This document shows positions 1 through 18,827 of a stretch of 27,651 nt of DNA, piece after piece (within the stretch, counting starts at the first letter, position 1; each line of letters begins with the position of its first letter). The notes beneath the pieces were generated by a model. It was not told the DNA's origin. It made no database searches and saw nothing but the letters and a program-made list of their open reading frames with translations. The translations under genes were made by a program, and so were the position numbers. The stretch comes from a virus (Duplodnaviria > Heunggongvirae > Uroviricota > Caudoviricetes), in the IMG/VR virus record IMGVR_UViG_2663763171_000005; one strand, given 5' to 3'.

Positions 1-132
1 GGTTGCACATCAAAGCAGTCTGTCAGTCAGTGCGTGAAGCCACCACCGCCTCCGGCGTGGATAATGCAGCCTCCCCCCGACTGGCAGACACCGCTGAACG
101 GGATTATTTCACCCTCCGGGAACGACTGGTAA
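1..132 (+). CDS. Rz1: o-spanin Rz1, C-terminal fragment, embedded in the +1 frame of Rz
   Basis: Frame-1 translation from position 1 reads GCTSKQSVSQCVKPPPPPAWIMQPPPDWQTPLNGIISPSGNDW then TAA at 130-132. It is Pro-rich with a lipobox-type Cys at the start, matching lambda Rz1, and lies wholly inside Rz in another frame. Confidence 0.8.
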   Translation, partial: GCTSKQSVSQCVKPPPPPAWIMQPPPDWQTPLNGIISPSGNDW

Positions 133-191
133 TGATGCAGGCCCAACTTGAAGGTGCTCAGCAATACATAACCGAGCAGTGTTTAAAGTAA
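3..191 (+). CDS. Rz: i-spanin Rz, C-terminal fragment (5' end lies outside the window)
   Basis: Frame-3 ORF translation ...HIKAVCQSVREATTASGVDNAASPRLADTAERDYFTLRERLVMMQAQLEGAQQYITEQCLK is recognisably the C-terminus of lambda-type Rz, from memory of the lambda protein. Stop at 189-191. Confidence 0.85.
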   Translation: MHIKAVCQSVREATTASGVDNAASPRLADTAERDYFTLRERLVMMQAQLEGAQQYITEQCLK

Positions 192-267
192 AATCTTAAC
201 TACAATATGATTCATTTTGATGATTGTTTCATAAGGAACAGTGAAGTAAGATCTAAGAGGAGTTAAA

Positions 268-273
268 TTTTAT
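268..273 (+). promoter_or_regulatory. Candidate sigma70 -10 hexamer (TATAAT) in the AT-rich spacer upstream of trkG
   Basis: Exact TATAAT at 268-273, about 55 nt upstream of the trkG ATG. No convincing -35 was found, so this is speculative. Confidence 0.2.
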
Positions 274-328
274 ACAGTATAATCATAATATTGCAGCAAG
301 GTGGTTATAATTGAAAGAATATTTAGAT

Positions 329-1786
329 ATGAATACATCTCATGTAAGAGTTGTTACTCATATGTGTGGGTTCCTGGTTTGGCTCTATAGTCTTTCAATG
401 TTGCCACCAATGGTTGTAGCATTGTTTTATAAAGAAAAAAGCCTGTTCGTTTTCTTTATAACTTTCGTTATATTTTTTTGCATTGGTGGCGGAGCGTGGT
501 ATACAACTAAGAAATCTGGCATTCAATTACGTACCCGTGATGGGTTTATTATAATTGTAATGTTTTGGATTTTGTTTTCTGTTATTAGTGCATTCCCTTT
601 ATGGATTGACTCAGAACTTAATTTAACGTTCATTGATGCTCTGTTTGAAGGGGTTTCTGGAATAACAACAACAGGAGCAACTGTAATTGATGATGTTAGT
701 TCATTACCTCGGGCATATTTGTACTATCGGTCACAGTTAAATTTTATAGGTGGTTTAGGAGTTATTGTTCTGGCGGTTGCAGTATTGCCATTATTGGGTA
801 TTGGTGGTGCAAAGCTTTATCAGTCAGAAATGCCGGGGCCATTTAAGGATGACAAACTCACTCCCCGCCTGGCCGATACGTCACGGACACTGTGGATAAC
901 TTATTCTTTATTAGGTATTGCTTGTATTGTCTGTTATAGACTTGCAGGAATGCCTTTGTTTGATGCTATTTGTCACGGGATTTCCACAGTTTCGCTTGGT
1001 GGTTTCTCAACTCATAGCGAGAGTATCGGATATTTTAATAACTATTTGGTTGAGCTGGTGGCTGGTTCTTTTTCCCTGCTATCGGCTTTCAACTTCACTC
1101 TTTGGTATATTGTTATTAGCAGAAAAACGATAAAACCTTTAATCAGAGATATTGAACTTCGTTTCTTTCTGTTAATAGCCTTAGGGGTGATCATTGTTAC
1201 CTCTTTCCAGGTCTGGCATATAGGTATGTATGACTTGCATGGAAGTTTTATTCATTCGTTTTTTCTTGCCAGCTCCATGCTCACTGATAATGGTTTAGCT
1301 ACGCAGGATTATGCAAACTGGCCCACGCACACGATAGTGTTTTTGCTGTTGTCAAGTTTCTTTGGGGGATGTATAGGTTCAACCTGTGGTGGAATTAAGT
1401 CACTTCGATTTCTTATACTTTTCAAACAAAGCAAACACGAGATAAATCAGCTTTCTCATCCCAGAGCGTTGTTGAGTGTAAATGTAGGAGGGAAGATAGT
1501 TACAGATCGTGTAATGAGGTCTGTATGGAGTTTCTTTTTTCTTTATACTCTCTTCACGGTGTTTTTTATACTGGTGTTAAATGGTATGGGATATGATTTT
1601 CTTACATCATTTGCAACAGTGGCTGCATGTATTAATAATATGGGATTAGGTTTTGGGGCTACTGCATCGTCATTCGGAGTGCTTAATGACATTGCAAAAT
1701 ATTTAATGTGCATAGCTATGATTCTTGGTCGCCTTGAAATTTATCCTGTTATTATATTGTTTTCAGGTTTTTTTTGGCGCTCCTAA
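329..1786 (+). CDS. trkG: Trk-system K+ uptake protein TrkG (TrkH/TrkG family membrane protein); prophage cargo gene
   Basis: ORF 311..1786 translation (MNTSHVRVVTHMCGFLVWLYSLSM...) matches my recollection of E. coli K-12 TrkG (485 aa), which is encoded in the Rac prophage. It is multi-pass hydrophobic with repeated glycine-rich pore-loop-like motifs (e.g. GGLGV). Start placed at ATG 329 to give 485 aa; the ORF opens at TTG 311, 7 nt after an AAGGTGG Shine-Dalgarno, so TTG 311 is an alternative start. The gene is visibly AT-rich relative to its neighbours. Confidence 0.93.
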   Translation: MNTSHVRVVTHMCGFLVWLYSLSMLPPMVVALFYKEKSLFVFFITFVIFFCIGGGAWYTTKKSGIQLRTRDGFIIIVMFWILFSVISAFPLWIDSELNLTFIDALFEGVSGITTTGATVIDDVSSLPRAYLYYRSQLNFIGGLGVIVLAVAVLPLLGIGGAKLYQSEMPGPFKDDKLTPRLADTSRTLWITYSLLGIACIVCYRLAGMPLFDAICHGISTVSLGGFSTHSESIGYFNNYLVELVAGSFSLLSAFNFTLWYIVISRKTIKPLIRDIELRFFLLIALGVIIVTSFQVWHIGMYDLHGSFIHSFFLASSMLTDNGLATQDYANWPTHTIVFLLLSSFFGGCIGSTCGGIKSLRFLILFKQSKHEINQLSHPRALLSVNVGGKIVTDRVMRSVWSFFFLYTLFTVFFILVLNGMGYDFLTSFATVAACINNMGLGFGATASSFGVLNDIAKYLMCIAMILGRLEIYPVIILFSGFFWRS

Positions 1787-1923
1787 TATATGGCTGATTT
1801 ATAATTGTGAGTTTAATATTATGTTGACTCACTCATTGATCCAATACCTAACTTTACCAGCAACACCTCCGCCCCCAGTAGCACTGGCTGCTGGGGTGCG
1901 TTTTATTCATAAAGCAAGGCTGT

Positions 1924-2712
1924 ATGAGCGAGAAATTAAAGATAGTCTATCGCCCATTACAAGAATTGTCACCGTATGCGCACAACGCCAGGACGCACAG
2001 TACTGAGCAGGTGGCACAACTGGTAGAAAGTATTAAGCAATTCGGCTGGACTAATCCGGTGCTGATTGACGAAAAGGGCGAAATTATTGCGGGTCACGGT
2101 CGTGTTATGGCGGCTGAAATGCTCAAAATGGATTCTGTTCCGGTCATTGTTCTGTCTGGCCTGACGGATGAGCAGAAAAAGGCGTACCGCCTGGCAGATA
2201 ATCGCCTGCCGATGAATGCTGGCTGGGATGAAGATCTGTTGCGGATGGAGCTGTCGGACCTAATCAATGCTGATTTTGATGTCTCCCTGACAGGCTTCAT
2301 CCCGGCAGAAATTGATGAACTGTTGACGGATGTTTTGCCCGGTACAGGAAATGAGGAGGAGCCGTATACGACGAAAATTGATACGCCTGTTTATGAGCCG
2401 TCAGGCGGTAAACCGGATATCAGTGAACTGTACGACGATACGAAAACTCAGGAGCTGATCAGCCGGATACGTTCGGCGTCCCTTGATCCTGATATTGAGA
2501 AATTCCTCCTGTGTGCAGCAGAACGTCACACGGTGTTTAATTTCAGCAGAATTGCGGACTATTACGCTCATGCCCCCGCTGAAATTCAGTGCCTTTTCGA
2601 GGAGTCGGCGCTGGTGATCATTGATTATCAGCAGGCTATTGAAAATGGATTTGTCCGAATGACGCAGCGCATGGTGGAGATCATGCATGGCGGGGAGGAG
2701 GAATATGCGTGA
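1924..2712 (+). CDS. ParB-like nuclease domain protein (ParB/Srx N-terminal fold)
   Basis: 262-aa ORF. The N-terminal region carries the ParB-type motif ...VLIDEKGEIIAGHGRVMAAEM... (GxGR box). Probably the full-length counterpart of the truncated K-12 Rac gene ynaK (from memory, unverified). The stop overlaps the next gene's start. Confidence 0.75.
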   Translation: MSEKLKIVYRPLQELSPYAHNARTHSTEQVAQLVESIKQFGWTNPVLIDEKGEIIAGHGRVMAAEMLKMDSVPVIVLSGLTDEQKKAYRLADNRLPMNAGWDEDLLRMELSDLINADFDVSLTGFIPAEIDELLTDVLPGTGNEEEPYTTKIDTPVYEPSGGKPDISELYDDTKTQELISRIRSASLDPDIEKFLLCAAERHTVFNFSRIADYYAHAPAEIQCLFEESALVIIDYQQAIENGFVRMTQRMVEIMHGGEEEYA

Positions 2713-3637
2713 TGATTTTTGCGCCTTTATTCTGACTCACGGGCGACCGGACAAAGTTCTGACTTACCGGACGTTGCGTCGTGCTGGCTATACCGGGAAA
2801 ATTTTTATCGTTGTTGATGATGAAGATAAGACACGGCATCAGTACATGGCTGAATTTGGTGAACAGGTGCTGGTATTTTCCAAAGCCGATATTGCTAGTC
2901 GTTTTGACGAAGCCGATAATTTTAGTGACCGCCGCTCAATTTTTTACGCCCGTAATGCCTGTTTCGACCAGGCAAAACTGGTCGGGTGTAAATACTTCAT
3001 TCAGCTCGATGATGATTATCACGAGTTCCAGTTTCGGGTGGATCGCAACTATGACCAGGCCTATTTCCCGATAAGGAAACTGGATGAGATCCTTTCTGAA
3101 ATGCTTGCGTACTACGAATCAATACCTGCTCTTTCCATCGCTATGTCGCAGGGCGGGGATTTTCTTGGTGACAATGGCGGCCATGCTTCGTGGGTGAAAC
3201 GCAAGGCAATGAACAGCTTTATCTGTTCGGTTGATCGACCGTTCTCATTCATGGGGCGCATTAACGAGGATGTGAATACGTACACGAATCTCGGTCGCTG
3301 TGGTGAATTGTTTATGACGATCGGTGCTGTCCAGTTAGGGCAGAAACAGACGCAGAAAAACAGCGGCGGAATGACCGAGCTGTATCTGGATTCCGGAACC
3401 TACGTTAAAAGTTTTTACTCCGTCATGTATGCGCCGTCGTGCGTAAAAATCTCACTTATGGGTGCCAGTCATAAACGCATTCACCATCAGGTCACCTGGA
3501 ACAACGCTGCAGTAAAAATCCTTCACGAAAAATACAGGAAGAAGACACCCTGCATATCAATGGGGGTGACAAATGATTCCGTATTCGAAAGTCGAGTCTC
3601 TGGCAGCGTGCCGGATGACTGCACAACAAATCGCTGA
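2705..3637 (+). CDS. Hypothetical protein, possible GT-A-like nucleotide-sugar transferase fold (DxD-type motifs)
   Basis: ORF 2687..3637. Start chosen at ATG 2705, which follows GGAGGAGG (2693-2700) by 4 nt. Contains acidic motifs IFIVVDDEDK and FIQLDDDYHEF about 60 aa apart, in the arrangement seen in GT-A glycosyltransferases; this is pattern-based inference only. Probably the intact form of the K-12 Rac pseudogene ydaY (unverified). Confidence 0.6.
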   Translation: MRDDFCAFILTHGRPDKVLTYRTLRRAGYTGKIFIVVDDEDKTRHQYMAEFGEQVLVFSKADIASRFDEADNFSDRRSIFYARNACFDQAKLVGCKYFIQLDDDYHEFQFRVDRNYDQAYFPIRKLDEILSEMLAYYESIPALSIAMSQGGDFLGDNGGHASWVKRKAMNSFICSVDRPFSFMGRINEDVNTYTNLGRCGELFMTIGAVQLGQKQTQKNSGGMTELYLDSGTYVKSFYSVMYAPSCVKISLMGASHKRIHHQVTWNNAAVKILHEKYRKKTPCISMGVTNDSVFESRVSGSVPDDCTTNR

Positions 3638-3824
3638 CGTTCTGGATGTTGATCTGAACCGACTGAAAGAAAATCGGGAAGCAATGACAGATTTTTATGC
3701 GGCCATCCGTAAGGGCAGAGCGAAAGGTGAAGCCGAGTTACGAGCGGCATTGTTTAAGCTTGCCAGAAAAGGGGATGCCTTTGCTCTGCGCGAACTACTC
3801 AGGGTGGATAAAAATCAGGACTAA
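3573..3824 (+). CDS. Small hypothetical protein, possibly DNA-binding (helical, basic)
   Basis: 83-aa ORF preceded by GGGGGTGA. Overlaps the 3' end of the upstream ORF by 65 nt in another frame. Ends 3 nt before the small terminase ATG. An internal ATG at 3615 is an alternative start. Confidence 0.45.
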   Translation: MIPYSKVESLAACRMTAQQIADVLDVDLNRLKENREAMTDFYAAIRKGRAKGEAELRAALFKLARKGDAFALRELLRVDKNQD

Positions 3825-3827
3825 CTG

Positions 3828-4922
3828 ATGAGCAGACCGGACTGGGGGGCGTTGCAGCAGGAGTATATTGCTGAATACACCCGCTCCGGTATATCTCCGG
3901 TGGCATGGTGTGAAGCAAGGGGACTGAATTACGCAACAGCCCGTCGTTACATCAAAAAAACTCCGAAAAATGCGCAGACAGAAATGTGCAAAACTGCGCA
4001 AAAAAGTGCGCAGAAAAAATCTGCGCAGACTGCACAAAAGCGGAACGAAAAATCTCAGGAAAAAAAGCCAGTATTCGATGCGGGCCTGAATGAGGGCGAC
4101 GCGGAGGAATTTTCGTTCTGTCCCGATGAATTCGGCATTTCTGACCAGCAGGCTAAGTTTGCGATGCTTGTTGCTCAGGGTAAAAAGCCGACAGAGGCGT
4201 ACCGACTAGCCGGTTATGAGGGGCAAGGTGCGACAGCTAACAGCAACGCCAGTCGTATGCTTAGAAATGCCAGGGTTTTTCGCGCTATCAGCTACTTCCG
4301 CAATCAGTACCAGAAACGCTATACCGCAGACCTGGATTTACTAGTGAGTCAGTTGATGGCTATTGTCCTGGCCGACCCCAATCAGCTTGCACAATTTCGC
4401 CGTGTTAACTGCCGTTATTGCTGGGGCGAGAATCATCTCTACCAGTGGCGCGATATAGCAGAATTCGACAAGGCAGCGGCGCAGGCTTCCAGAGATGGCA
4501 AACCCGAACCGGAATATGGAGGCCTCGGCTTTGTTGATAACGCCATACCCAATCCGGACTGCCCGAAGTGCTGCGGTGAGGGAACGGGACAGCTTTATAT
4601 GGCTGATACCACTCTGCTTGATGGGGATGCGCGGCAATTATATGCAGGGGCAAAATTCGGAAAATTCGGCGTTGAGATCCTGCTGGAGGATAAGGCTGCC
4701 GCCCGGCGTGAATTGTTGCGTTTGTTTTCTGCTGGCGGGGCTTTATGTGCAGATAAGCGGCTACGGGAACTGGAAATTGAACGGCGCAGAATGGAAAACC
4801 AGAAGCTGCGCAAAGAGATCGAAACGGTGGAAGATAATGAACATCCCCAGCCTGTGGCGATCAATATTAATGTGGTTGATGCCAGAGTAAGGAGTGATGA
4901 AGATGATCTCTCCGACGCTTAA
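3828..4922 (+). CDS. Terminase small subunit (N-terminal HTH DNA-binding domain)
   Basis: 364-aa ORF directly upstream of the large terminase. N-terminal HTH-like segment ISPVAWCEARGLNYATARRYI, followed by a lysine-rich linker and a Cys-rich segment (CRYCWGENH...CPKCCGEG). Confidence 0.8.
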   Translation: MSRPDWGALQQEYIAEYTRSGISPVAWCEARGLNYATARRYIKKTPKNAQTEMCKTAQKSAQKKSAQTAQKRNEKSQEKKPVFDAGLNEGDAEEFSFCPDEFGISDQQAKFAMLVAQGKKPTEAYRLAGYEGQGATANSNASRMLRNARVFRAISYFRNQYQKRYTADLDLLVSQLMAIVLADPNQLAQFRRVNCRYCWGENHLYQWRDIAEFDKAAAQASRDGKPEPEYGGLGFVDNAIPNPDCPKCCGEGTGQLYMADTTLLDGDARQLYAGAKFGKFGVEILLEDKAAARRELLRLFSAGGALCADKRLRELEIERRRMENQKLRKEIETVEDNEHPQPVAININVVDARVRSDEDDLSDA

Positions 4923-6204
4923 TGTGCCTCAGGCGCGATTTCTTTCAATGCCCCATAAATTTAAAGCCTATATTGCTGGTTTTGGCTCGGGCAAAACATG
5001 GGTTGGGTGTGGCGGCATATGCAAGGGGATTTGGGAGCATCCAGGTATAAATCAGGGATATTTTGCGCCAACGTATCCCCAAATTCGCGATATTTTTTAC
5101 CCTACAGTGGAAGAAGTTGCTGCTGACTGGGGATTGAACGTAAAAATTAATGAGGGAAATAAAGAGGTTCACTTTTATTACGGACGCCAGTATCGGGGAA
5201 CCACTATCTGCAGATCGATGGAGAAGCCACAAACGATCGTCGGTTTCAAAATTGGTAATGCGTTGGTGGATGAACTGGACATTTTGCCGAAGGAAAAAGC
5301 CAGAACGGCGTGGCGCAAGATAATTGCACGTATGCGTTATAAGATTGATGGACTTCGCAACGGTATTGACGTTACAACCACGCCGGAAGGATTCAAATTT
5401 GTCTACGAGCAGTTTGTTAAAGCCGTGCGTGAAAAAACAGAGCTGGCCTCACTGTATGGTCTGGTGCAGGCATCTACTTTCGATAATGAAAAGAACCTGC
5501 CAGCAGATTACATTCCTTCGCTTCTTGAATCATACCCTCCAGAGCTGATTAAAGCCTATCTTCGAGGACAGTTTACTAACCTGACAAGTGGTACTGTTTA
5601 CCATCAGTTTGACCGGAAACTGAATAATTGCGAAGAAGTGGAGCAGCCAGGGGAGCCGATTTATATTGGGATGGATTTTAACGTTGGAAAGATGGCGGGA
5701 ATCGTCCATGTGCTGCGTTTGGGGCTTCCATGTGCGGTAACTGAAATCATCAATGCCTACGATACGCCGGATATGATCCGCATCATTAAAGAACGCTTCT
5801 GGCTGTATGATGGGAATGATTACCGGAAAGTGAGGGAAATTTATATTTATCCAGATGCTTCCGGGGATTCCAGAAAATCAAGTAACGCAAGTACGACGGA
5901 TATAGCCCAGCTTAAGCAGGCTGGTTTTAACGTTGTGGTGAACAGCTCGAACCCGCCAGTAAAAGATCGCGTTAACTCAATGAATGCAATGTTCTGCAAT
6001 GCCAATGGTGAGCGTCGCTATAAAGTTAATGTGAAGCGTTGCCCGTTATATGCCGAATCTCTGGAGCAACAGGTCTGGGATGAGAAGGGGGAGCCTGATA
6101 AAAAATCTGGCAATGATCACCCGAATGATGCCGGAGGTTATTTCATCGTTAAGCAATTCCCTATTGTCAAACCGACCGGAAGAGTCACATCACTTCGGAT
6201 TTAA
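4903..6204 (+). CDS. Terminase large subunit (ATPase plus nuclease)
   Basis: Walker A motif AGFGSGKT near the N-terminus, Walker B-like LVDELD, and acidic nuclease-type motifs (IGMDFN, YIYPDASGD) in the C-terminal half. Start ambiguous among GTG 4894, ATG 4897 and ATG 4903; ATG 4903 has the best spacing from TAAGGAG (4888-4894). Confidence 0.88.
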   Translation: MISPTLNVPQARFLSMPHKFKAYIAGFGSGKTWVGCGGICKGIWEHPGINQGYFAPTYPQIRDIFYPTVEEVAADWGLNVKINEGNKEVHFYYGRQYRGTTICRSMEKPQTIVGFKIGNALVDELDILPKEKARTAWRKIIARMRYKIDGLRNGIDVTTTPEGFKFVYEQFVKAVREKTELASLYGLVQASTFDNEKNLPADYIPSLLESYPPELIKAYLRGQFTNLTSGTVYHQFDRKLNNCEEVEQPGEPIYIGMDFNVGKMAGIVHVLRLGLPCAVTEIINAYDTPDMIRIIKERFWLYDGNDYRKVREIYIYPDASGDSRKSSNASTTDIAQLKQAGFNVVVNSSNPPVKDRVNSMNAMFCNANGERRYKVNVKRCPLYAESLEQQVWDEKGEPDKKSGNDHPNDAGGYFIVKQFPIVKPTGRVTSLRI

Positions 6205-6206
6205 TT

Positions 6207-7613
6207 ATGGCTGATATATCAACACCCAACCTCGACTATAACGATATGCTGGAGGCGTGGGATATTAACGACGCACTGATGGGCGGTACGCTTGAAATGC
6301 GCAGGCAGGGGGAAAATTATCTCCCAAAATGGCCTAACGAAGATGAAGACGCTTATAAAAAACGCCTGTCTGTGGCTACGCTACTTCCTGTGTATGAAGA
6401 AAGCATCAAGCAAAATATTGGGCGCATATTTGCAGAGCCGACAGTATTGAGTGAGGAAACGCCGGCAAAAATCAGGGAATATGCAGAAAATATCGACATG
6501 GAGGGGAGCCGACTGGATGTGTGGGCGCAGCAATTTTTCAGCCTCGCATTTCAGTATGGTGTGGCACATGCGCTGGTGGACTATCCACGAACGGATATGA
6601 AAGAGATTCGGACAAAAGCCGATGAAAACGCGACCGGTGGTCGTCCGTACGTTACGATGCTGAATCCACGCCAGGTTATTGGATGGAAATCGAAAGTTGA
6701 AAAAGGGAAAGTTGTTCTCACTGATTTGCGTATAAAAGAGGTCATCATTATTGATGGTGATGATTTCGGGCAGAAGAAGGTGGAGCAGATCCGCCATATT
6801 ATGCCCCGTCGAGTTGAAATTTATCGACGTAGCGAAGGCACTAATGGCGAATCTGTCTGGACGCTTCATGAGTCATGGAATACCAGCCGTGATGATATTC
6901 CTCTGGTAACACTGTACACGAAGAAAACAGGATTTATGCGTGGTACACCGCCATTGCTTAATCTTGGCTTGCTGAATATCAAGCACTGGCAAAGCCAGAG
7001 CGAGCAGGACAATATTCTTCATGTTGCCCGCGTTCCATTGCTGGTGGCCTACGGGCTGGACAGGAATGAAGAACTGACGGTTGGTGCATCCACCGCTACG
7101 ATTTTTGAGGACAGAACAAAAAATGGCCTCGAATATGTTGAACATAGTGGCGCAGCGATAGAATCTGGCGAAACATCACTTGAGAAGCTGGAAAATCAGA
7201 TGCGTCATGCCGGCGCTAAACTTCTGCGTGCTGAAAATACATCCACCAAATCTGTTGATCAGACTAATGAAGAGCGAATGCAGGAAAACTCGCCGCTTTA
7301 TACAATGGCGAACTCCCTCGAAGATGCCCTCGATAATATTCTCCAGATAATGGCGGAATGGATCGGAGAGAGTTGCGGTGGCAATGTGGATGTGCGCACT
7401 GAACTGGATGTATCTGCCCAGGTGTTTGACTCATCCTCCGCGCTGGCTGTTCAGTCATTGCGTCAGGGCGGTGATATACGTCAGATTGATGCGGTTCGGG
7501 TGTTGCAGGCGTTGAAATTTATCGATCAGGATTCCCGTCCAGAGGAAGTGATCGATGAATTAAAAAATCAGAGTGTAATGCTGATGGAAATCAATGATGC
7601 AAACCGTGAATGA
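6207..7613 (+). CDS. Portal protein
   Basis: 468-aa ORF immediately after the large terminase and before the MuF-like head morphogenesis gene, the canonical position. Size and acidic C-terminus are consistent with a portal. Call is by synteny. Confidence 0.7.
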   Translation: MADISTPNLDYNDMLEAWDINDALMGGTLEMRRQGENYLPKWPNEDEDAYKKRLSVATLLPVYEESIKQNIGRIFAEPTVLSEETPAKIREYAENIDMEGSRLDVWAQQFFSLAFQYGVAHALVDYPRTDMKEIRTKADENATGGRPYVTMLNPRQVIGWKSKVEKGKVVLTDLRIKEVIIIDGDDFGQKKVEQIRHIMPRRVEIYRRSEGTNGESVWTLHESWNTSRDDIPLVTLYTKKTGFMRGTPPLLNLGLLNIKHWQSQSEQDNILHVARVPLLVAYGLDRNEELTVGASTATIFEDRTKNGLEYVEHSGAAIESGETSLEKLENQMRHAGAKLLRAENTSTKSVDQTNEERMQENSPLYTMANSLEDALDNILQIMAEWIGESCGGNVDVRTELDVSAQVFDSSSALAVQSLRQGGDIRQIDAVRVLQALKFIDQDSRPEEVIDELKNQSVMLMEINDANRE

Positions 7614-8709
7614 ACGGCTGCGTGATGAATCAATTGCTCATGCAGTCTGGATATCCCGCTATAGCACTGGCGTGGCTGCCAGAATGGTGAAAATACTGAA
7701 TGACAGCGATGCGGAACTTACTGCTCGCCTGCTGATAGCACTGGACAGCCTCGATCCAGGTAGTTTTACCGTTAAGCGCCTGGAGTCACTTCTGGCGAGC
7801 GTCAGAGAGGTTAACCGCACTGCTATTAACAGCATGTTTACCAGTCTCTCCGGAGAGCTGAACGAGCTGGCAATTTATGAGGCTGGTTATCAGTTAAGTC
7901 TGTTTGATTCTATGCTACCTGATTTTGTTGCTGATGTTCACCCTCTGGTTGGTATCTCTCCTGATGCACTTTATGCCGCTGCAATGGCGCGACCATTCCA
8001 GGGACGACTGCTCAGTGAGTGGGCCTCAGATCTTGAGGCGGATCGGCTCAGACGCATAACAAATACAGTGCGTCAGGGTTTTTTGCTGGGGGATACCAAT
8101 GAGCAGATCGCAAGAAAAATTCGGGGACATGTCAGTAAGGGATTTCAGGATGGTGCATTGCAGATGAGCCGGGCTAATGCGGCCAGCATTGCAAAAACAG
8201 CGGTTGGACATCTTGCTGCTACTGCCCGTGAGAGTTTTGCCAGCGCGAATAATGATTTGATTAAGGGTAAGCAATGGTTATCAACGCTTGATAATCGTAC
8301 TACGCCACAATGTCGAATCAGGGATCGCCTCAAATATACGCTGAATAATAAACCTGTAGGTCACAGCGTGCCTTATTTGCAGGGGCCGGGAAAAATTCAT
8401 TTCTGCTGCCGCTCAACGGAAACGTTCATTCTGAAATCAGCGAAGGAACTGGGTATTGATGTTCGCGATATTTCCCCGGCTGAGCGGGCCAGCATGGATG
8501 GCGTGGTGGCCGGAGATACAACCTACAGGGAATGGTTTTTGCGTCAGCCTTACACCAGACAAAAACAGATTGTGGGGGAAAGCCGAGCAAAGCTGATTCG
8601 GGATGGTGGTATGTCGCCAGATGAATTTTACACCGATAAAGGCGAATGGCTGACGCTGAAGCAGCTCCGTGAGCGTGATGCACAGGTATTCAGAAAAGCA
8701 GGGATTTAA
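7594..8709 (+). CDS. Head morphogenesis protein (MuF-like / SPP1 gp7 family)
   Basis: 371-aa ORF overlapping the portal stop. Position after the portal and general sequence character fit the minor-capsid head morphogenesis family. Confidence 0.7.
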   Translation: MMQTVNERLRDESIAHAVWISRYSTGVAARMVKILNDSDAELTARLLIALDSLDPGSFTVKRLESLLASVREVNRTAINSMFTSLSGELNELAIYEAGYQLSLFDSMLPDFVADVHPLVGISPDALYAAAMARPFQGRLLSEWASDLEADRLRRITNTVRQGFLLGDTNEQIARKIRGHVSKGFQDGALQMSRANAASIAKTAVGHLAATARESFASANNDLIKGKQWLSTLDNRTTPQCRIRDRLKYTLNNKPVGHSVPYLQGPGKIHFCCRSTETFILKSAKELGIDVRDISPAERASMDGVVAGDTTYREWFLRQPYTRQKQIVGESRAKLIRDGGMSPDEFYTDKGEWLTLKQLRERDAQVFRKAGI

Positions 8710-8729
8710 ATAAATCATTTATTACAACA

Positions 8730-8756
8730 GGCTACCTTCGGGTGGCCTTTTTTATT
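8730..8756 (+). terminator. Intrinsic terminator-like hairpin after the head morphogenesis gene
   Basis: GGCTACC-TTCG-GGTGGCC (7-bp stem with one G-U pair, UUCG tetraloop) followed by TTTTTTATT. Confidence 0.6.
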
Positions 8757-8813
8757 GCTGCGATCCGGATGGTGAGCAGCGTAACTGTCGGAAGACTTAA
8801 ACCAGGTACTAAT

Positions 8814-9578
8814 ATGAAACTGAAAACGGTCGAGATTAACGGAAAACAATACGCAGAAATTGATACTGCTGGCCTGCCAGTTTATGTGCACGACGATGGT
8901 AAAGAAATTGGCTTCGATGCACCGCTGGCGACAAAAAAAATTACAGAGCTTAATGGCGAGGCAAAAAATCATCGCCTGGCTAAAGAAGCTGCAGAGGAAA
9001 AACTGGCTAAGTTTGCCGCTATCGAAGACCCGAAGAAGGCGATCGAGGCACTGGAAATGCTGTCAAAAATCGACCAGAAAAAGCTGCTCGATGCGGGACA
9101 GGTTGACCAGGTTAAGGCAGAAATTACGAAAAATTTTCAGCAGCAATTAGATGAAGAAAAGCAACGCTCTCAGATGCTGGAGAAGCAGCTTTACGATTCT
9201 ATGATTGGCGGTAGTTTTGCGGGTTCAAAATATATTGCCGATAAAATTGCGATCCCGGCAGATTTATTACAAGCCCGCTTCGGGCAGGCATTCAAAGTGG
9301 AAGAAGGGAGGATCGTTGCTTATGACGCTTCCGGCAACAAAATTTATTCCCGCGCGAAGCCTGGCGAACTGGCGCAGTTTGATGAGGCGCTGGAGTTCCT
9401 TGTCGAAAATTACCCTCAGAAAGACTACATCCTGAAAGCCAGTGGCAACAATGGCGGCGGCTCCCGTCCGACACAGCATGATATTGGTCAGAAAACGATG
9501 AAACGCTCTGCTTTTGATGCACTGGATGTTGCAGGTAAGCAAAACGCATTGAAAGACGGTATCACAATCGTTGATTAA
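8814..9578 (+). CDS. Scaffolding protein
   Basis: ORF 8742..9578. The upstream part overlaps the terminator hairpin, so the start is placed at ATG 8814 (MKLKTVEINGKQ...). Highly charged, helical/coiled-coil-like sequence (EEKQRSQMLEKQLYD) located directly before the major capsid gene. Confidence 0.7.
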   Translation: MKLKTVEINGKQYAEIDTAGLPVYVHDDGKEIGFDAPLATKKITELNGEAKNHRLAKEAAEEKLAKFAAIEDPKKAIEALEMLSKIDQKKLLDAGQVDQVKAEITKNFQQQLDEEKQRSQMLEKQLYDSMIGGSFAGSKYIADKIAIPADLLQARFGQAFKVEEGRIVAYDASGNKIYSRAKPGELAQFDEALEFLVENYPQKDYILKASGNNGGGSRPTQHDIGQKTMKRSAFDALDVAGKQNALKDGITIVD

Positions 9579-9676
9579 CACATTTGTCAGCTTCCGGATG
9601 GGAGCTGGTGTCAGGGCTGGATAGCTCATTACTCCATCTATTCACAATTACGCAAATTTTTAAGGAATATTTAATT

Positions 9677-10816
9677 ATGGCTGGAAATACCCTGACCGGG
9701 TTGATCCCGACTATTTATACCGCCCTGGATGTTGTATCCCGTGAGCAGGTAGGTTTTATCCCTGCGGTAGCAAAAAACGCAAAAGCTGACGCCGCAGCAA
9801 AAGATCAGACGGTAACCGCGCCAGTTGCGCCTGAGGCGAAAACCGAAGATATCGTACCGGGGCCGTCAGCTCCGAATACCGGTGATCAAAATATTGGCAC
9901 TGTTGATGTAAAAATTACTAAATCCAAAATGGCACCGGTTAAATGGAATGGTGAAGAACAACTGGCTCTTGGCCCTTCAGGGACTTACAACACCATTCTG
10001 GCTGATCAGTTCAAGCAGGCTTTTCGCGCCCTTGCAAACGAGGTTGAGGCTGATCTTGGTGCGTTGTATTTCGGTGCTTCCCGCGCCGTGGGAACCGCAG
10101 GGACAACGCCGTTTGGTGTTAAAGATGATCTTTCTGATGCTGCTCTGGCTCGTCAGGTTCTGGAGGATAACGGCGCACCGACAACCGATCTGCAGATGGT
10201 GCTTGGCTCCACTGCCATTGCTAATTTGCGCGGAAAACAGTCTGTATTGTTTAAAGTGAATGAATCCGGCACTGAACAGCTACTGCGTGAGGGCGTGTTG
10301 GGGCGTCTGGAGGGATTCAATATTCACAGTTCGGCAGGTGTGAAACGAGCGCCAAAGGTTGCTGCAACTGGTTATCTCGTGAATGGAGAGAAAAAAGAAG
10401 GCGATGTTCTTATTTCCATTGATACTGGTTCGGGGAGTATTTCTGCAGGTCAGATTGTTACGTTCGCTGGTGATCCGAATCAGTATGTTGTGGCAGCAGC
10501 GACCAGCAATCTGATTACTCTTGCAGCGCCCGGACTGCGTCAGGATCTGGCCGATGATACTGCCATCACAGTTGTTGGGGCCTTTACTGCAAATATGGCG
10601 TTTGATCGCAACGCGTTTCTGCTGGCATCCCGTACTCCGGCAATGCCGGAAGGTGGCGATAATGCTGATGATGTAATGAATGTTACGGACCCGATTTCAG
10701 GGATTACGTTCCAGATTGCACTGTATCGTCAGTATCGCCAGGTGCGCTATGAAGTTGGACTGGCATGGGGTGTTTCATCAGTGAAGCCGGCACATGGTTG
10801 TCTGATTCTTGGTTAA
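9677..10816 (+). CDS. Major capsid (coat) protein
   Basis: ORF 9584..10816. Start placed at ATG 9677, which follows TAAGGAA (MAGNTLTGLIPTIY...). About 380 aa, directly after the scaffold and followed by a strong terminator hairpin. Confidence 0.8.
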   Translation: MAGNTLTGLIPTIYTALDVVSREQVGFIPAVAKNAKADAAAKDQTVTAPVAPEAKTEDIVPGPSAPNTGDQNIGTVDVKITKSKMAPVKWNGEEQLALGPSGTYNTILADQFKQAFRALANEVEADLGALYFGASRAVGTAGTTPFGVKDDLSDAALARQVLEDNGAPTTDLQMVLGSTAIANLRGKQSVLFKVNESGTEQLLREGVLGRLEGFNIHSSAGVKRAPKVAATGYLVNGEKKEGDVLISIDTGSGSISAGQIVTFAGDPNQYVVAAATSNLITLAAPGLRQDLADDTAITVVGAFTANMAFDRNAFLLASRTPAMPEGGDNADDVMNVTDPISGITFQIALYRQYRQVRYEVGLAWGVSSVKPAHGCLILG

Positions 10817-10826
10817 ACATTCAAAC

Positions 10827-10848
10827 GGGGCTTCGGCCCCATTTTTAA
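10827..10848 (+). terminator. Intrinsic terminator-like hairpin after the major capsid gene
   Basis: GGGGC-TTCG-GCCCC (5-bp GC stem, UUCG loop) followed by ATTTTTAA. Confidence 0.6.
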
Positions 10849-10858
10849 TGGGGGGCAT

Positions 10859-11035
10859 ATGGCCGGATTAACTAAAGAGCAAAGAGCACAGCGTGAAGCC
10901 GCACAAAAAACGCAAATTGAGTTAGTGGTTATGGTGACCGATTATCAGATGTTTCCCGGCGCACCAACTATCGCTAATGTTCATCCTGATGAAGTTGACA
11001 ACTGGAAGGCTATGGGCTGGAAAACTCAGGAGTAA
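10859..11035 (+). CDS. Small hypothetical protein (58 aa), absent from the supplied ORF track
   Basis: ATG 10859 preceded by GGGGGG; translation MAGLTKEQRAQREAAQKTQIELVVMVTDYQMFPGAPTIANVHPDEVDNWKAMGWKTQE; TAA at 11033-11035. It fills the capsid-to-connector gap exactly and ends 3 nt before the next ATG. Confidence 0.45.
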   Translation: MAGLTKEQRAQREAAQKTQIELVVMVTDYQMFPGAPTIANVHPDEVDNWKAMGWKTQE

Positions 11036-11038
11036 CAC

Positions 11039-11434
11039 ATGATCACTTACGTGACCTGTGATGACGTTGATAATGCGTTTGGGAACGCCTGGACGAGTGA
11101 GAACGCTAAAAATAAAGCTGTTTTAATGGCTAATGCCTGGCTTAATGGCTTCAACCTGAAAATTAACCCATCCCGTATTCCGGAAGAGGTAAAACTTGCG
11201 GGAGCATATGCAGCCAGAATTGCCTCATTCGGTAAGTTGTTTCAGCAGAAAAATGATTCTGGCGTTGTTATCAGTAAAGCCGTGTCGGCTGACGGGGTCA
11301 GTGTATCGAAATCATTTTCTGAGTTGCCAGCAAACAGCACTGCATTGCTTGAACCCGATTTACAGCTTGCGATAGCACTGCTGAAACCGTACGGACTTAG
11401 TCGCTCACAAGTCAGGGTTGTGAGGGGGGGATAA
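11039..11434 (+). CDS. Head-tail connector / head completion protein
   Basis: 131-aa ORF at the head-tail joining position; stop overlaps the next start (TAATG). Call is by synteny. Confidence 0.6.
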   Translation: MITYVTCDDVDNAFGNAWTSENAKNKAVLMANAWLNGFNLKINPSRIPEEVKLAGAYAARIASFGKLFQQKNDSGVVISKAVSADGVSVSKSFSELPANSTALLEPDLQLAIALLKPYGLSRSQVRVVRGG

Positions 11435-11817
11435 TGGGGCTTCGTGAAGAGATTCAGTCAGAGGTTGCCGCTGCTTTTGATGAGGATTTAGCGGACGCCG
11501 TGAGTGATTTTTCTGGTTCTTACGTTACGCACCGGCACTGGGATCCTGTGACGGAAACTGGCGGCGAATCCACCGCAATCTATACCGGGCGAGGCGTGTT
11601 GACACGTTATAAGCTGGGCAGAATTGATGGGATTAATATTTTGCATGGTGACCTTAAATTAACCGCTCTGGTATGCGAGGTTACGGATAAACCAGCTGTC
11701 GACCATATTATTGAGATTTATGATCCTGTATCAAGGCAGTTACAACGATACGAGGTAATTACAGCAAGTGTAGATCCTTCCGCATCAGTTTACTCTATCC
11801 AGTTAAGGAGAGCGTAA
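11434..11817 (+). CDS. Head-tail joining (head closure) protein
   Basis: 127-aa ORF, translationally coupled to its neighbours. Call is by synteny. Confidence 0.55.
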   Translation: MGLREEIQSEVAAAFDEDLADAVSDFSGSYVTHRHWDPVTETGGESTAIYTGRGVLTRYKLGRIDGINILHGDLKLTALVCEVTDKPAVDHIIEIYDPVSRQLQRYEVITASVDPSASVYSIQLRRA

Positions 11818-12198
11818 ATGGCAAAGGCATGGGATATAGAACCGTCAATATTTGCCGGGATGATTGAGGAAGATGTAGGGCTGAAGATTCGCTACATCGC
11901 TATGCAGATTCTTACTGCTATTGATATTGCTGCTCCGGTTGATACCGGACGTTTCAGAAATAACAACCTGGTGTCGTTACAGCATCCCGATTTTGGTATA
12001 TCTGATAACGTGGATCCGAACGGTACGATTGCTGTTCAGCGTGGGATCGGGGTTATTTCGAAAGCTGCAAATTACGGGGTTATTTATATCCAGAATAACC
12101 TTCCTTATGCAGAGGCTCTTGAAAACGGTCATTCACAACAAGCGCCAACTGGCGTGTATGCCAACGCTTTTCATGGTGTTTTACAGGCTTACAAATGA
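11818..12198 (+). CDS. HK97 gp10-like neck / tail completion protein
   Basis: 126-aa ORF with the C-terminal motif NNLPYAEALENGHS, which resembles the HK97 gp10 family signature. ATGA overlap with the next gene. Confidence 0.65.
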   Translation: MAKAWDIEPSIFAGMIEEDVGLKIRYIAMQILTAIDIAAPVDTGRFRNNNLVSLQHPDFGISDNVDPNGTIAVQRGIGVISKAANYGVIYIQNNLPYAEALENGHSQQAPTGVYANAFHGVLQAYK

Positions 12199-12587
12199 AG
12201 TTTACTGAAATCAGAAATACGGTTATTTCCAGAATGACGGCACAGACGATTATTGATGGAAAAGACGTATTGTATCCGAACGGGCCAACGTTCGATCCTT
12301 CCGGTAAGTTAATCTGGGCGCGGTTAAGTAATATTCCCGGGCAGGCTGGAGTTAATGAAATTGGCGCGGGGCCGGTTGTTTATCGCACGGGGATAATCAT
12401 TATTCAGTTATTTGTCCCCGCAGGTTCTGGTTCAAAACTCATTACTGAGACAGCCGATAAATTGCGGGAACTGTTTGAGTTTCAGGATGACGATCGTCTC
12501 AGTTACCAGGCTGTTTCCTCAATAGCCGTTGGCGAAAAGAATGGCTGGTTCCAGCTTAATCTTCAAATTCCATATCGCGCGCTCTAG
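12195..12587 (+). CDS. Tail terminator / tail completion protein
   Basis: 130-aa ORF immediately upstream of the major tail protein. Call is by synteny. Confidence 0.55.
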   Translation: MKFTEIRNTVISRMTAQTIIDGKDVLYPNGPTFDPSGKLIWARLSNIPGQAGVNEIGAGPVVYRTGIIIIQLFVPAGSGSKLITETADKLRELFEFQDDDRLSYQAVSSIAVGEKNGWFQLNLQIPYRAL

Positions 12588-12613
12588 CGCAATTAATGAC
12601 ATAGGAGGCTCCT

Positions 12614-13576
12614 GTGAGTTCAGGTGCAAAGGTTATCTCGGCATTTATCCGGGAGACGGTTGCAGGCACTACGCCAGCAAGTGGTGACTGGAGTTTATTA
12701 AAACGCACAAGCTGGGGAGTAAAACCCACCCAGAATAAAGGCGAAAATAATGAGATTGGTGGCTCCCGGATGGCTCAGGGGGCGACGCCTGGCACTGTGG
12801 ATGTCGGCGGTGATGTTGGTACCAAATTTCGCTGGGGTCAACATGATGATTTTCTTGCATCCTGTTTCGGCGCGGAATGGTCAGGCGATTCTCTGACAAT
12901 GGGGAATGAGCGAATAACATTTTCTCTGGCGACCTATGCGTCCGATGTCGGAATTGCCTCTGTCGTCAGAGGAGCGCAGGTTGGCTCATGGAAAATGCAG
13001 ATCCCTAACGACGGCGATATTACAGCGACCGTAACCTTTGCCGGACTGGACTGGGAATCAAAGGCCGATGATACGAATTTTATCAAAGGCGAACCTGTGG
13101 ATAGTGCAGGAAAGCTACGTTATTCGTTTAAGGAGGTTTCAGCAGTAAGCCTGAATGGTGTTGCCGGAGGTAACGGTTTTTGTATCGACAGTTTTGATAT
13201 TCAGTTCGATAACAAACTCCAGACACAGCGTTGTATCGGGACTGGCTCGCCTTATGCAGGAGCAAATATTCCGACTACTTTTACACCGTCCGGTACGGTG
13301 ACGCTTTCATGGTCTAAAGCCGCGTGGGAAATCTGGAGTAAAACACTGACTGGAGAAACAGTTCCGTTCAGCTTCACGCTTTCGAATGGAGAGGGGGCAT
13401 ACACTTTCAGTTTCCCGAAGGTTCAGGTGTCAGGTGAATGGCCTGATGGGGGTAATAGCGACATTATCCAGGTTCAATTGAGCATTACCGCAGCAGATGA
13501 AGCACCTACGATAACCAGAAAAAAAAATTCCCCGGCTGCCGTGATCGCAAAAGCCAGTGCTGAGGCGATTAGTTGA
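12614..13576 (+). CDS. Major tail (tube) protein
   Basis: 320-aa ORF with a GTG start at 12614, 5 nt after AGGAGG (12603-12608). Lies directly upstream of the chaperone pair and tape measure gene. Gly/Ser/Thr-rich, beta-type sequence. Confidence 0.8.
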   Translation: MSSGAKVISAFIRETVAGTTPASGDWSLLKRTSWGVKPTQNKGENNEIGGSRMAQGATPGTVDVGGDVGTKFRWGQHDDFLASCFGAEWSGDSLTMGNERITFSLATYASDVGIASVVRGAQVGSWKMQIPNDGDITATVTFAGLDWESKADDTNFIKGEPVDSAGKLRYSFKEVSAVSLNGVAGGNGFCIDSFDIQFDNKLQTQRCIGTGSPYAGANIPTTFTPSGTVTLSWSKAAWEIWSKTLTGETVPFSFTLSNGEGAYTFSFPKVQVSGEWPDGGNSDIIQVQLSITAADEAPTITRKKNSPAAVIAKASAEAIS

Positions 13577-13636
13577 TTTTCCGTTATTCCTCCTGTGGTA
13601 CTGCCCTACAGGGGGACGCATTGAATGAGGTTATGG

Positions 13637-14086
13637 ATGTTTATTCTTAATCAGAAAATTATCATTGGTGGAGAACGCTGGTTTACGCCAATGAAGGACT
13701 TAAAACCTGTAGACGGGTTAAAACTGTTGGTGGCAAGCAGCGATAACGATCAGTATCGCTCCCGTAATGCATTAATCCGTCGCCACATTGAGAAAATGGA
13801 TGCCAGTTTGCACGTCGGAACGAAGGAGTTTGATATTTCAAAGGTTTCCGAGGTGGATTCTGTTGATGATTTACTCATTGATAATGCCGCTCGTTATCTG
13901 CTGAAAGACTGGAAAGGGGTTGGTGAACTGGTTAATGGTGTTGAGGTTGCACTGGAATATACGGCAGAACGAGGGATCGCGCTGCTTAAGCAGAATCCAG
14001 AGTTGTACTGGCAGATCCTTGCAGAAGCAGCCAGCATCGCCCAGGGTAAAGAGCAGCAGAAGCAGGATACGATAAAAAAGCCATAG
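13637..14086 (+). CDS. Tail assembly chaperone (lambda gpG analogue)
   Basis: ORF 13625..14086. Start placed at ATG 13637, 6 nt after GAGG. Acidic protein. Ends ...DTIKKP with the slippery heptamer A AAA AAG in its last codons. Confidence 0.8.
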   Translation: MFILNQKIIIGGERWFTPMKDLKPVDGLKLLVASSDNDQYRSRNALIRRHIEKMDASLHVGTKEFDISKVSEVDSVDDLLIDNAARYLLKDWKGVGELVNGVEVALEYTAERGIALLKQNPELYWQILAEAASIAQGKEQQKQDTIKKP

Positions 14087-14559: not shown

Positions 14560-17500
14560 ATGGCAGAGCAAACCTCGCGTCTCGCAATAATTATTGATAG
14601 CACTGGAGCGAAAAATAATGCTGACAATCTGACCTCCTCATTAGTCAAAATGACGCAGGCTGGGGAAACTGCTGCAAATAGCGCAGGGAAAGTGACTAAG
14701 GCAACAGAAGATGAGAAGAACGCGCTCGCAAAATTAAAAGCAGCTATTGATCCAGTTGGTGCCGCAATTGATACTGTCGGTCGACGCTATTCTGAATTAA
14801 AGAAATTTTTCGATAAAGGGCTTATTGATAAAGAAGAATATGAATTTCTTGTCCGTAAACTTAATGAAACCACAGAGGAATTGAGCGGGGTTGCGCAAGC
14901 GCAGAGAGAAGCCGAGAAGGCCGGAAAACTTGCTGCCGCCCAGCAGGAAGCGCAGGCTCAGGCCTTTCAAAGAATGCTGGACAAGATCGACCCTCTGGCT
15001 GCGGCGCTAAGAAATCTTGAACAACAGCATGATGAACTTAATGCTGCGTTTGCATCCGGGAAAATAAATGGTTCTCAGTTTGAGAATTATAGCCGAAAAA
15101 TACAGGAAACACGGCGAGAGCTTACCGGAGAGGCTCAGGCAGAGCGAGAAGCAGCAAAAGCGCATGATGAACAGGTTGTTGCTTTGCAACGTCTGATTGC
15201 TCAACTTGATCCTGTCGGAACTGCTTTTAATCGTCTGGTAGAACAACAGAAACAGCTCAATGAAGCAAAAGCTAAGGGGATGCTTTCTCCTGAAATGTAT
15301 GAGGAGCTTTCTGGAAAACTTCGTGCTATGCGGAGTGAGCTTGAGGTTACTCAATCACAATTAAGCAAAACCGGAATGTCGGCAAAACAAACGGCTTTTG
15401 CTATGCGCATGTTGCCTGTACAAATGACGGATATTGTTGTTGGGTTGTCCACTGGTCAGTCGCCATTTATGGTGTTAATGCAGCAGGGCGGCCAGCTAAA
15501 AGATATGTTCGGTGGGATTGGCCCGGCGATCAAAGGTGTAGGTTCTTATGTGCTGGGATTAATTAATCCTTTTACCCTGGCCGCAGCAGCCGTTGGGGTC
15601 TTAGGACTGGCTTACTATAAAGGCTCTCAGGAGCAGGACGAATTTAATAAATCTCTTATTCTTACCGGAAATCAGTTGGGGACAACCAGCGGGCAATTGG
15701 GCGATATAGCTCAACGTGCCGGGAATGCGGCTGATTCGACAACTGGTGCTGCGGCGGCAGTATTAAATCAGCTTGTGCGTTCGGGAAAGGTAGCGAGCAG
15801 TTCGCTGGAGCAAGTGACGACAGCGATAGTAAAAACGAGCGAAGTAACAGGAATATCAACCGAACAACTGGTTAATGACTTCAATGAAATTGCAAAGGAT
15901 CCTGTCAGTGCCATATCAAAACTTAATGATCAGTACCATTTTCTGACACTTGCGACTTATAACCAGATTAAGGCGCTACAGGATGAAGGGAACCAGCAGG
16001 AGGCCGCCCGCATTGCGACAGAAGAATACTCATCCTCAATGATCCAGCGCACCAACCAGATTAAAGAAAATCTTGGTTATCTTGAGACTGCATGGAAAGC
16101 TGTCGCAGACTCCGCAAAATGGGCATGGGATTCCATGCTGGATATTGGCCGTGAGGCCTCCCTTGATCAAAAAATCTCAGATGTTCTCCGTCAAATTGAT
16201 GAAATAGAAAAAAATACCCGACCCGGAGTTTTCGGGTTAGGTGGCATTGGAGATGGCGGAGCTCAAAATAAAAGGCTGGCACGATTAAAGCAGCAATTGG
16301 GCGTACTTCAAGCAGAAAAAATTGCTCAGGACGTACTAAATTCATCAATAAACGATTACAACAAGCGACAACAGGAAGGAATTGAACTCAGACAGAGAGC
16401 AGATGCCTTTTCAAAACAATATCAGACCCGGGAGCAGCAGAGAGCTAGTGAACTTGCAAAACTGGAAAAGCTAAAGAATCAGTATTCAAAGGAAGAATAT
16501 AATAATCTTATCGCTCAAATAAATGAGCGTTATAAAGATCCAAAGCAACCAAAGGCGAAAGGTTATTCTGATGATGCAGCCCAACGAATGATTGATCATC
16601 TGAATCAACAGAATGCGTTACTAAGTTCACAAGCTGAGTTGACCGTTAAATTAAGTTCCTCTGAACAGGAACTGGTTAAGTGGCGTCAGCGGATTGCCGA
16701 CCTAGAGTCACGACCATCATCGAAATTAACCCAGGATCAGAAATCGCTTCTCTTACACCGGGAAGAAATAACCACGTTGATGGAGAAAAATGTTGCGATT
16801 GAAAAAAATAACAGGCTAATCAAGGAATCCGCCGAAATAACAGCATGGCGTGATTCATTGCAGGCTTCGATTGATAATCGTCAGCAGGGGTATGATATTC
16901 AGATTGCTGGTTATGGGGTTGGCGATAAAAATCAGCAACGCCAGCAGGAATTACTGCGGATTGAACATGGATATAACAATCAGCGTCTGCAACTTGAACG
17001 TGACTATGCAGATAAATCCCGTGGAATGTCAGATCATGTTTTTCAAGAGAAAATGCAGGCTCTGAATGATGCTCTGGAACGGGAAAAAGAAATTGTCAGA
17101 CAGAAAAACGAGCAGCTCGATATTCAGGCAGGAGACTGGGTTAGTGGTGCCTCCCAGGGATTCAATAACTGGCTGGATGACACTAAGGATATCAGTGAGC
17201 AGATAAAATCAACCACGACTCAGATGTTTGATGGGATGACCGATGCGCTGGGTGATTTTGTCACGACAGGCAAGGCAAATTTTCGTTCTTTCGCTACTTC
17301 CGTGATTTCGGATCTTAGTCGAATAGCATTAAAGGCTTCAATTACTGGGATTTTCGACAGCATTAGTAACAGTTCTTCTGGGGGGATTTTAGGAACTATC
17401 GGGAGTGCTATTAGTAAATTTATTCCGAATGCAAAGGGCGGTGTTTATGAGTCTCCGTCATTGAGCACGTATTCGAACGGTATTTATGATTCCCCGCAAT

Positions 17501-17793
17501 TTTTTGCTTTTGCAAAAGGGGCTGGTGTTTTTGGTGAGGCTGGACCGGAAGCCATTATGCCATTAACACGAACTTCCGATGGTTCTCTTGGTGTCAGAGC
17601 TATTAATAGTAAAAGTGGTAATGGAGGCGGAGATATTACCTATGCCCCTGTATACCAAATCACTATTCAAAATGACGGCCAGAATGGAGAGATTGGCCCT
17701 CAGGCAATAAAAGCACTTATGGGGATGGTTGATCAGCGGGTGCAGGGCAATCTGTTAAATATGCGACGTGATGGGGGAATGTTAAGTGGCTAA
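14560..17793 (+). CDS. Tail tape measure protein
   Basis: 1077-aa ORF downstream of the chaperone pair. N-terminal half is coiled-coil-rich with internal repeats. A central hydrophobic/Gly-rich segment ([32 protein letters not shown]...) is typical of tape measure proteins. Confidence 0.92.
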
Positions 17794-18124
17794 TACGGAA
17801 GAATTTCACTGGTTACCAGAGGATGGAATGAAAACAGAAAATAAACCATCGATAAAAACTGTAAGATTTGGTGATGGTTATGAGCAACGAAGTCCAAATG
17901 GACTTAATCATTCTCTGCGCGTTTTCACCTGTGATTTCAAAGTTGAGGCGAATGAACGTGATTCATTTGAAAAATTTTTAGCCCGGCATGAAGGCTATAA
18001 ATCTTTTTTTTGGCGCCCGCCGGGTATTAACAGAAAAATCAGAGTGGTGTGTCGAACGTGGTCAGCGACAGAACATATCACCTATACCGATTTTTCGTGT
18101 CAGTTTGACGAAGTGGTGATCTGA
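17786..18124 (+). CDS. M: Minor tail protein M (tail tip assembly)
   Basis: Translation ...[35 protein letters not shown]... aligns with lambda gpM (FRWKVKPGMDV...VRFGDGYSQRAPAGLN). The alignment supports the upstream GTG 17786 as start, overlapping the tape measure stop. Confidence 0.88.
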
Positions 18125-18822: not shown

Positions 18823-18827
18823 ATCCC

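Follow-up and report, generated by a model that had tools for sequence, protein, structure and literature searches.

The segment at about 163/192–1907, between the lysis genes Rz/Rz1 and the ParB-like gene ynaK, is very probably a cargo cassette (moron) of the lambdoid prophage Rac that carries the potassium transporter gene trkG. It was analysed within a stretch of 27,651 nucleotides, here called the window, which begins inside Rz. The gene is that known as b1363 in E. coli K-12, found in an undeleted copy of its prophage, and it does not represent a new kind of system. The presence of trkG in Rac, its low GC content and foreign origin, its own promoter, its control by H-NS and its transport properties are already known from the literature. 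What goes slightly beyond published work is the placement of the K-12 deletions on a full-length Rac late region, the finding that no trkG-less version of this backbone could be detected, the chromosomal location of the TrkG clade elsewhere in the Enterobacterales, and a suggested translation start at TTG311.

The initial annotation of this DNA had placed a TrkG reading frame of 485 residues directly after Rz/Rz1 and had interpreted it as a horizontally acquired cargo gene in the slot between lysis and packaging genes. The frame and its position are borne out by the reading frame itself and by Pfam matches to TrkH and Phage_lysis (Table 1). The interpretation, which is already to be found in the literature, is supported by base composition, by promoter studies in K-12, and by the use of the same slot in the related prophage Rac-SA53. 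In its composition, its signals, and its expression in prophages that are repressed or defective, trkG conforms to what is usually understood by a moron.

Table 1. Positions of the trkG segment, its candidate signals and the adjoining phage genes in the window.
Feature	Position	Strand	Evidence or remark
Rz, 3' end	1–191 (frame 3–191)	+	Pfam Phage_lysis 1.9e-23; identical to K-12 rzpR
Rz1, 3' end, embedded in another frame	1–132	+	proline-rich lipoprotein tail ending in stop; identical to K-12 rzoR
-35/-10 match	182–211	+	motif scan
AT-rich upstream spacer with candidate trkG expression signals	192–328	+	composition, motif scan
TATAAT, perfect	278–283	+	motif
Shine-Dalgarno AAGGTGG	298–304	+	motif
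In-frame TTG directly after TAA stop	311	+	sequence
trkG coding sequence, usual annotation	329–1786	+	485 aa, TrkH family; start may instead be TTG311 (491 aa)
AT-rich 3' tail of cargo segment	1787–1859	+	28.8% GC; island end at about 1856
Intrinsic-terminator-like element: GC-rich hairpin 1870–1900, then TTTTATT 1901–1907	1870–1907	+	terminator scan, RNA fold
ynaK	1924–2712	+	Pfam ParB_N 8.7e-7; phrog_620 1.7e-90
TET-associated-type glycosyltransferase	2687–3637	+	Pfam TAGT 4.1e-34
Small ORF	3573–3824	+
Small terminase	3828–4922	+	Pfam Terminase_2 3.8e-8
Large terminase	4894–6204	+	Pfam Terminase_6N 3.7e-33, Terminase_6C 3.4e-10

Identity and integrity of trkG

The open frame of trkG extends over 311–1786, which yields 485 residues if translation begins at ATG329 and 491 residues if it begins at the in-frame TTG311. 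The product matches the Pfam family TrkH (PF02386) over profile positions 3–500 of 502, with a score far above the curated cut-off (483.2 vs 27 bits, E=1.1e-144), and the TrkH structures of V. parahaemolyticus (3PJZ/4J9U) align with it end to end (E=2e-121). In an alignment of 14 sequences, which includes twelve homologues at 61–79% identity, the pore motifs TTTGA, SLGGFST, TDNGL and NNMGLG are invariant, and all of them are kept in the window. The selectivity-filter glycines of the four pore loops (TTTG116A, SLG224G225FST, TDNG322L and NNMG439LG) all lie in invariant columns. The glycine-rich intramembrane gating loop FFGGCIGSTCGGIK (residues 344–357; FFGGCxGSTCGGIK) and the C-terminal arginine R468 are likewise invariant and present, and the pore loops as well as the gating loop align to the solved TrkH structure. 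The same Pfam family and the same arrangement of four pore-loop repeats with a gating loop are seen in TrkH of E. coli and V. parahaemolyticus (PDB 3PJZ, 4J9U, 6V4J-L), which represents a paralogue clade distinct from TrkG.

Compared with TrkG of K-12, the protein is identical at 483 of 485 positions, the substitutions (K-12 to window) being S330N and C458Y. Residue 330 falls in a variable column, while tyrosine is the common residue at position 458 among the homologues; as Y458 is the family consensus, it is C458 of K-12 that is the odd allele. At the nucleotide level, bases 2–2000 show only a handful of differences from Rac of K-12 MG1655, in which the same gene has the same neighbours (rzpR/rzoR – trkG – ynaK). 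Near-identity to b1363 and the flanking Rz/Rz1 and ynaK mark the gene as the Rac trkG orthologue. Judged from its sequence, the segment is the trkG of the Rac prophage and is free of any disabling lesion: such lesions were sought by alignment and are absent, the frame being open and the invariant motifs complete.

In keeping with this, it is scarcely credible that trkG is a decaying remnant which has lost its function. Such decay is not without precedent, as the prophage is degraded in many strains, an IS5-family insertion within trkG occurs in one genome, and truncated copies of the gene exist. The gene in the window, however, is full length, and of its two substitutions relative to the functional K-12 protein one restores the family consensus and the other is confined to a variable column. 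The same conservation is seen at the population level, where 1,551 of 5,426 complete E. coli genomes (about 29%) carry trkG and 1,517 records have it at no less than 99% identity.

K+ transport by TrkG of K-12 depends on the TrkA gating ring, and the protein mediates Na+-dependent K+ uptake together with some Na+ uptake (PMC9898762); the allele in the window differs from it at 2 of 485 residues. The product would be expected to act as the membrane pore subunit of the Trk K+ uptake system, paired with the TrkA gating ring of the host.

Composition, origin and insertion slot

The trkG gene had been described as conspicuously AT-rich compared with the flanking phage genes, and this holds for GC content, GC3, codon usage and segmentation alike. 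Its GC content is 38.0%, compared to 54.0% in the Rz tail (3–191) and 50.8% in the rest of the window (1924–27651); the lowest value among all other 1,458-bp windows of the stretch is 42.7%. GC3 (32.5%) is the lowest among the 24 genes tested in the window, and AT-rich/rare codons account for 11.1% of trkG vs 4.7% of the pooled late genes. When the first 6 kb were divided into three segments by likelihood (LLR 41.7), an AT-rich island was delimited at 163–1856, with 36.4% GC vs 58.6% to its left and 48.5% to its right. The comparison of GC content and codon usage that the initial annotation had asked for thus sets trkG clearly apart from its neighbours, and a composition unlike that of the neighbouring phage genes is among the properties by which morons are recognised.

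AT-rich spacers had been noted on both sides of the gene. This is correct for the upstream spacer (192–328), which has only 25.5% GC, while the downstream spacer (1787–1923; 41.6% GC overall) is AT-rich only in its first part, 1787–1859; the remainder (1860–1923) has 56.2% GC and includes a stable hairpin.

A low GC content might conceivably follow from the residues that make up a very hydrophobic membrane protein and would then be no sign of foreign origin: Phe, Ile and Leu, with their T-/A-rich codons, are abundant in TrkG, and trkG shows a strongly negative AT skew throughout. We regard this as extremely improbable, and the reading is already contradicted by GC3 and by GC-rich homologues. 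GC3, on which the choice of amino acids has little influence, is itself at the minimum of the window, and the upstream spacer, which is non-coding, is still more AT-rich than the gene. Moreover, a 70%-identical homologue from Enterobacter has 56.7% GC, and a value of 53% has been reported for E. coli trkH (PMC9898762).

Proteins of the TrkG clade with 60–79% identity are widespread in the Enterobacterales. Chromosomal genes of this clade in Enterobacter, Pectobacterium, E. fergusonii and Serratia belong to the same length class and are located outside prophages. The above-mentioned Enterobacter homologue has a GC content equal to that of its flanks and is found among core chromosomal genes, namely a radical-SAM, a multicopper-oxidase-family and an acyltransferase gene and that for topoisomerase IV subunit A. 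In Pectobacterium, the homologue adjoins the core genes for glutamyl-tRNA reductase, lolB, ribose-phosphate pyrophosphokinase, peptidyl-tRNA hydrolase and a YchF-type GTPase, and that of E. fergusonii also has a non-phage neighbourhood. As members of the TrkG clade are ordinary genes of the chromosome in other Enterobacterales, we infer that the phage lineage captured trkG from a bacterial chromosome, including the direction of this transfer, so that the phage gene is best read as a captured bacterial gene. The Serratia homologue (positions 1–13461 of the contigs) is found on an island together with a D5-type primase, a Na+/alanine symporter, transposase remnants, and a DUF4011 helicase-like protein of 1,960 residues.

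The slot occupied by trkG has counterparts in other lambdoid phages. On the lambda map, the cargo gene bor is placed after the lysis cassette and before the small terminase gene; it is read from the opposite strand, unlike trkG, whose orientation is that of the late operon. In Rac-SA53 (KU052037.1), the LT-IIa toxin genes eltIIaA/B are situated between the endolysin gene and terS (23488–24628), and thus in the same slot as trkG, although the virion module of this prophage differs, with only about 6% of the query being shared. The three cases, bor, eltIIaAB and trkG, are alike in that an accessory gene which is dispensable for phage growth resides between the lysis genes and the small terminase gene. 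They differ in detail, as ynaK and the glycosyltransferase gene intervene between the cargo and terS in the window, unlike the situation for bor of lambda and eltIIaAB of Rac-SA53. Rac-SA53 also carries a pertussis-like toxin pair between its Q and holin genes.

The first backbone gene past the cargo is ynaK, which is full length here and truncated in K-12. An empty site, represented by 465 nt of Rz joined to 465 nt of ynaK, was sought in 5,426 complete E. coli genomes, with the requirement that this Rz and this ynaK allele occur within about 965 bp, and none was found without trkG. An earlier, unbalanced Rz–ynaK query had been uninformative, as the ynaK half alone gave 82% coverage. Since no empty site was detected, the case for an insertion is built on composition and on the analogy with Rac-SA53 and not on a before/after pair, and trkG looks fixed in this phage lineage. 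As to the genes which separate the cargo from the terminases, ynaK and the glycosyltransferase gene (1924–3637) may form a DNA-modification pair; the glycosyltransferase also matches phrog_842, which is annotated as hydroxymethylcytosine glucosyltransferase.

Expression signals and translation start

The upstream spacer had been considered to be a possible site for a promoter of trkG itself. This view is supported by data obtained in K-12, whose 137-nt spacer is 100% identical to that of the window. Genomic SELEX revealed a constitutive RpoD (sigma-70) promoter at trkG, which is among the few in any K-12 prophage, and the authors of that study concluded that trkG must have entered Rac along with its own promoter (PMC5811629). 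A luciferase reporter was active in K-12 when fused to a fragment that starts within Rz and ends with the base preceding ATG329 (PMC9898762, supplementary primers). The trkG transcript is increased in hns and hns stpA mutants, with repression by H-NS being partial (PMC9898762); it also rises 3.8-fold under SlyA overexpression, and the list of the H-NS regulon includes trkG (PMC5797941). In a repressed prophage, trkG would probably be transcribed from its own sigma-70 promoter within the AT-rich upstream spacer, and H-NS/StpA would be expected to damp this promoter in part.

The sequence itself is less explicit. The conserved TATAAT is preceded by a poor -35 region, and a generic promoter scan of positions 1–4000 returned 6 sites vs 8.1 expected in shuffled sequence; as there is no enrichment over shuffles, the promoter is unproven by sequence alone. 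The 79%-identical gene of E. fergusonii has unrelated chromosomal neighbours; a comparison of the two upstream regions showed conservation of the blocks AGTATAAT and GGTATAATTGA only.

Because trkG is co-oriented with the late operon (Rz, terminases), Q-antiterminated late transcription should also cover the gene in lytic growth. It might even be argued that trkG has no promoter of its own and is a mere passenger of the late operon, so that its K+ uptake would aid the phage during lytic growth and not the lysogen. The read-through expected from the organisation of lambdoid late operons is consistent with such a role, as is the lack of enrichment in the promoter scan. We nevertheless consider it very unlikely, as trkG is transcribed and functional in Rac of K-12 despite the loss of the Q/late-promoter region: there, ydaW runs straight into the rzpR remnant, and it is in the region lost between these genes that full-length relatives carry a Q-type gene. 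Expression of trkG in K-12 is therefore independent of the late promoter. The luciferase activity of the upstream fragment and the RpoD SELEX site (PMC9898762, PMC5811629) speak against this explanation as well, given that the upstream sequence is the same here. We thus favour an autonomous promoter which is active in the lysogen. Read-through from the late operon might serve the lytic cycle of the phage too, and trkG may have a role there in addition to that in the lysogen.

The assignment of the translation start also merits attention. The usually annotated ATG329 has no ribosome-binding site, TTG311 is preceded by the Shine-Dalgarno AAGGTGG, and homologues start with GTG (Enterobacter) or TTG (Pectobacterium) after a GGAG-type site, at a position equivalent to TTG311. 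A start at TTG311 would give a protein of 491 residues, which is the length of most TrkG homologues. From these comparisons, the true start of trkG may be TTG311, 18 nt upstream of the annotated ATG329. If so, the reference annotation of K-12 trkG is six residues short.

Downstream of the gene, the hairpin at 1870–1900 comprises 13 pairs with a predicted stability of -25.2 kcal/mol (z = -3.7), and none of 200 shuffles folds as well. A factor-independent terminator of its own, another hallmark of morons, is thus present as a computed prediction, and transcription of trkG would most likely end at this hairpin. The downstream spacer differs from that of K-12 by a single base, C1872T, which lies in the hairpin and converts a C-G pair to U-G in K-12. 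Conservation of the terminator was sought in E. fergusonii, and none was found. The part of the spacer that contains the hairpin has a normal GC content, and the element may be a component of the phage backbone instead of the cargo. A scan of the whole window against Rfam gave no match, so the spacers of trkG contain no known RNA element.

The late region and the possible mobility of trkG

Compared with the window, Rac of K-12 lacks 2178–13736 (11,559 bp) and 15495–25143 (9,649 bp), and it carries an IS5 in lom. The remnants of the deleted stretches are annotated as ynaK, ydaY, ynaA and lomR; only the first 254 nt of ynaK are kept. The junction of the first deletion shares only the 2-nt sequence AA. 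The late module in the window restores both deletions and is complete in kind. Its virion genes comprise those for the small and large terminase, portal, head-morphogenesis protein, scaffold and major head protein; these are accompanied by genes for the adaptor, head closure, tail completion and terminator proteins, for the tube-type protein, chaperone and tape measure, and for M, L, K, I, J, Lom and StfR, the last of which is open. Of the 5,426 complete E. coli genomes, 682 contain at least 80% of the 25-kb late region. The region upstream of Rz can be followed in NZ_CP084096, which is identical over 1–3000, and in ON470614, and in both it extends from intR through Rz; in NZ_CP084096, intR adjoins ttcA.

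The initial annotation had gone further in taking the element for an intact Rac-like phage by which trkG could be mobilised in a complete virion. That every type of head and tail gene is represented agrees with the first part of this proposal, but J is split and the window does not include the early half of the prophage. J (20177–24873) is divided into reading frames of 712 and 861 residues by a tandem duplication of 1,298 bp, the copies of which (20969–22266 and 22267–23564) are 97.5% identical; this length is not a multiple of three and causes a frameshift. Neither ON032529 nor any of the 20 best complete E. coli genomes contains this duplication. An actual lesion, recombination between two J alleles, or a chimeric assembly could each account for it.

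Mobilisation of trkG by a virion is plausible but is not established, given the split of J and the nature of the database records that carry the gene. There are ten such records in the phage database, and all are either prophages predicted by PHASTER or a mislabelled chromosome fragment. We rejected these matches as evidence for virions, the ON4706xx records being PHASTER predictions from draft genomes. The record ON032529.1, entitled "Salmonella phage SPF_0923, complete genome", was likewise rejected as a phage: at 28143–35262 it passes from the right arm of Rac into the host genes sitABCD, uspF, ompN and the pyruvate-flavodoxin oxidoreductase gene, and it has no early region, so that it is a chromosome fragment. 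No isolated phage that shares this head module was found in the phage database. Full-sized Rac-like prophages have already been described (PMC5917428), and some Rac-like prophages of O157:H7 have been reported to be transmissible (PMC4632033).

If the prophage were active, Na+-dependent K+ uptake could be spread by lysogenic conversion. The proposals that the full-length Rac-type prophage bearing trkG is an active temperate phage which spreads this uptake system, and that translation of trkG begins at TTG311, are tentative ones, and taken together we consider them rather unlikely.

The late genes of the window are not uniform in composition. At about 18100–23800, the GC content rises from the 45–50% seen in the head and tail-shaft genes to 56–60% in L, K, I and J, the tail-tip genes of lambda type, and this jump marks a mosaic boundary in composition near the M/L junction. 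The gene for the side tail fibre, stfR (25604–27651), stays open as far as the window extends, and the N-terminal half of its product consists of a long Ala/Ser/Thr-rich region of low-complexity repeats. It is these repeats that give rise to a GC content of 60% and a strong A-over-T skew at 25.8–27.0 kb.
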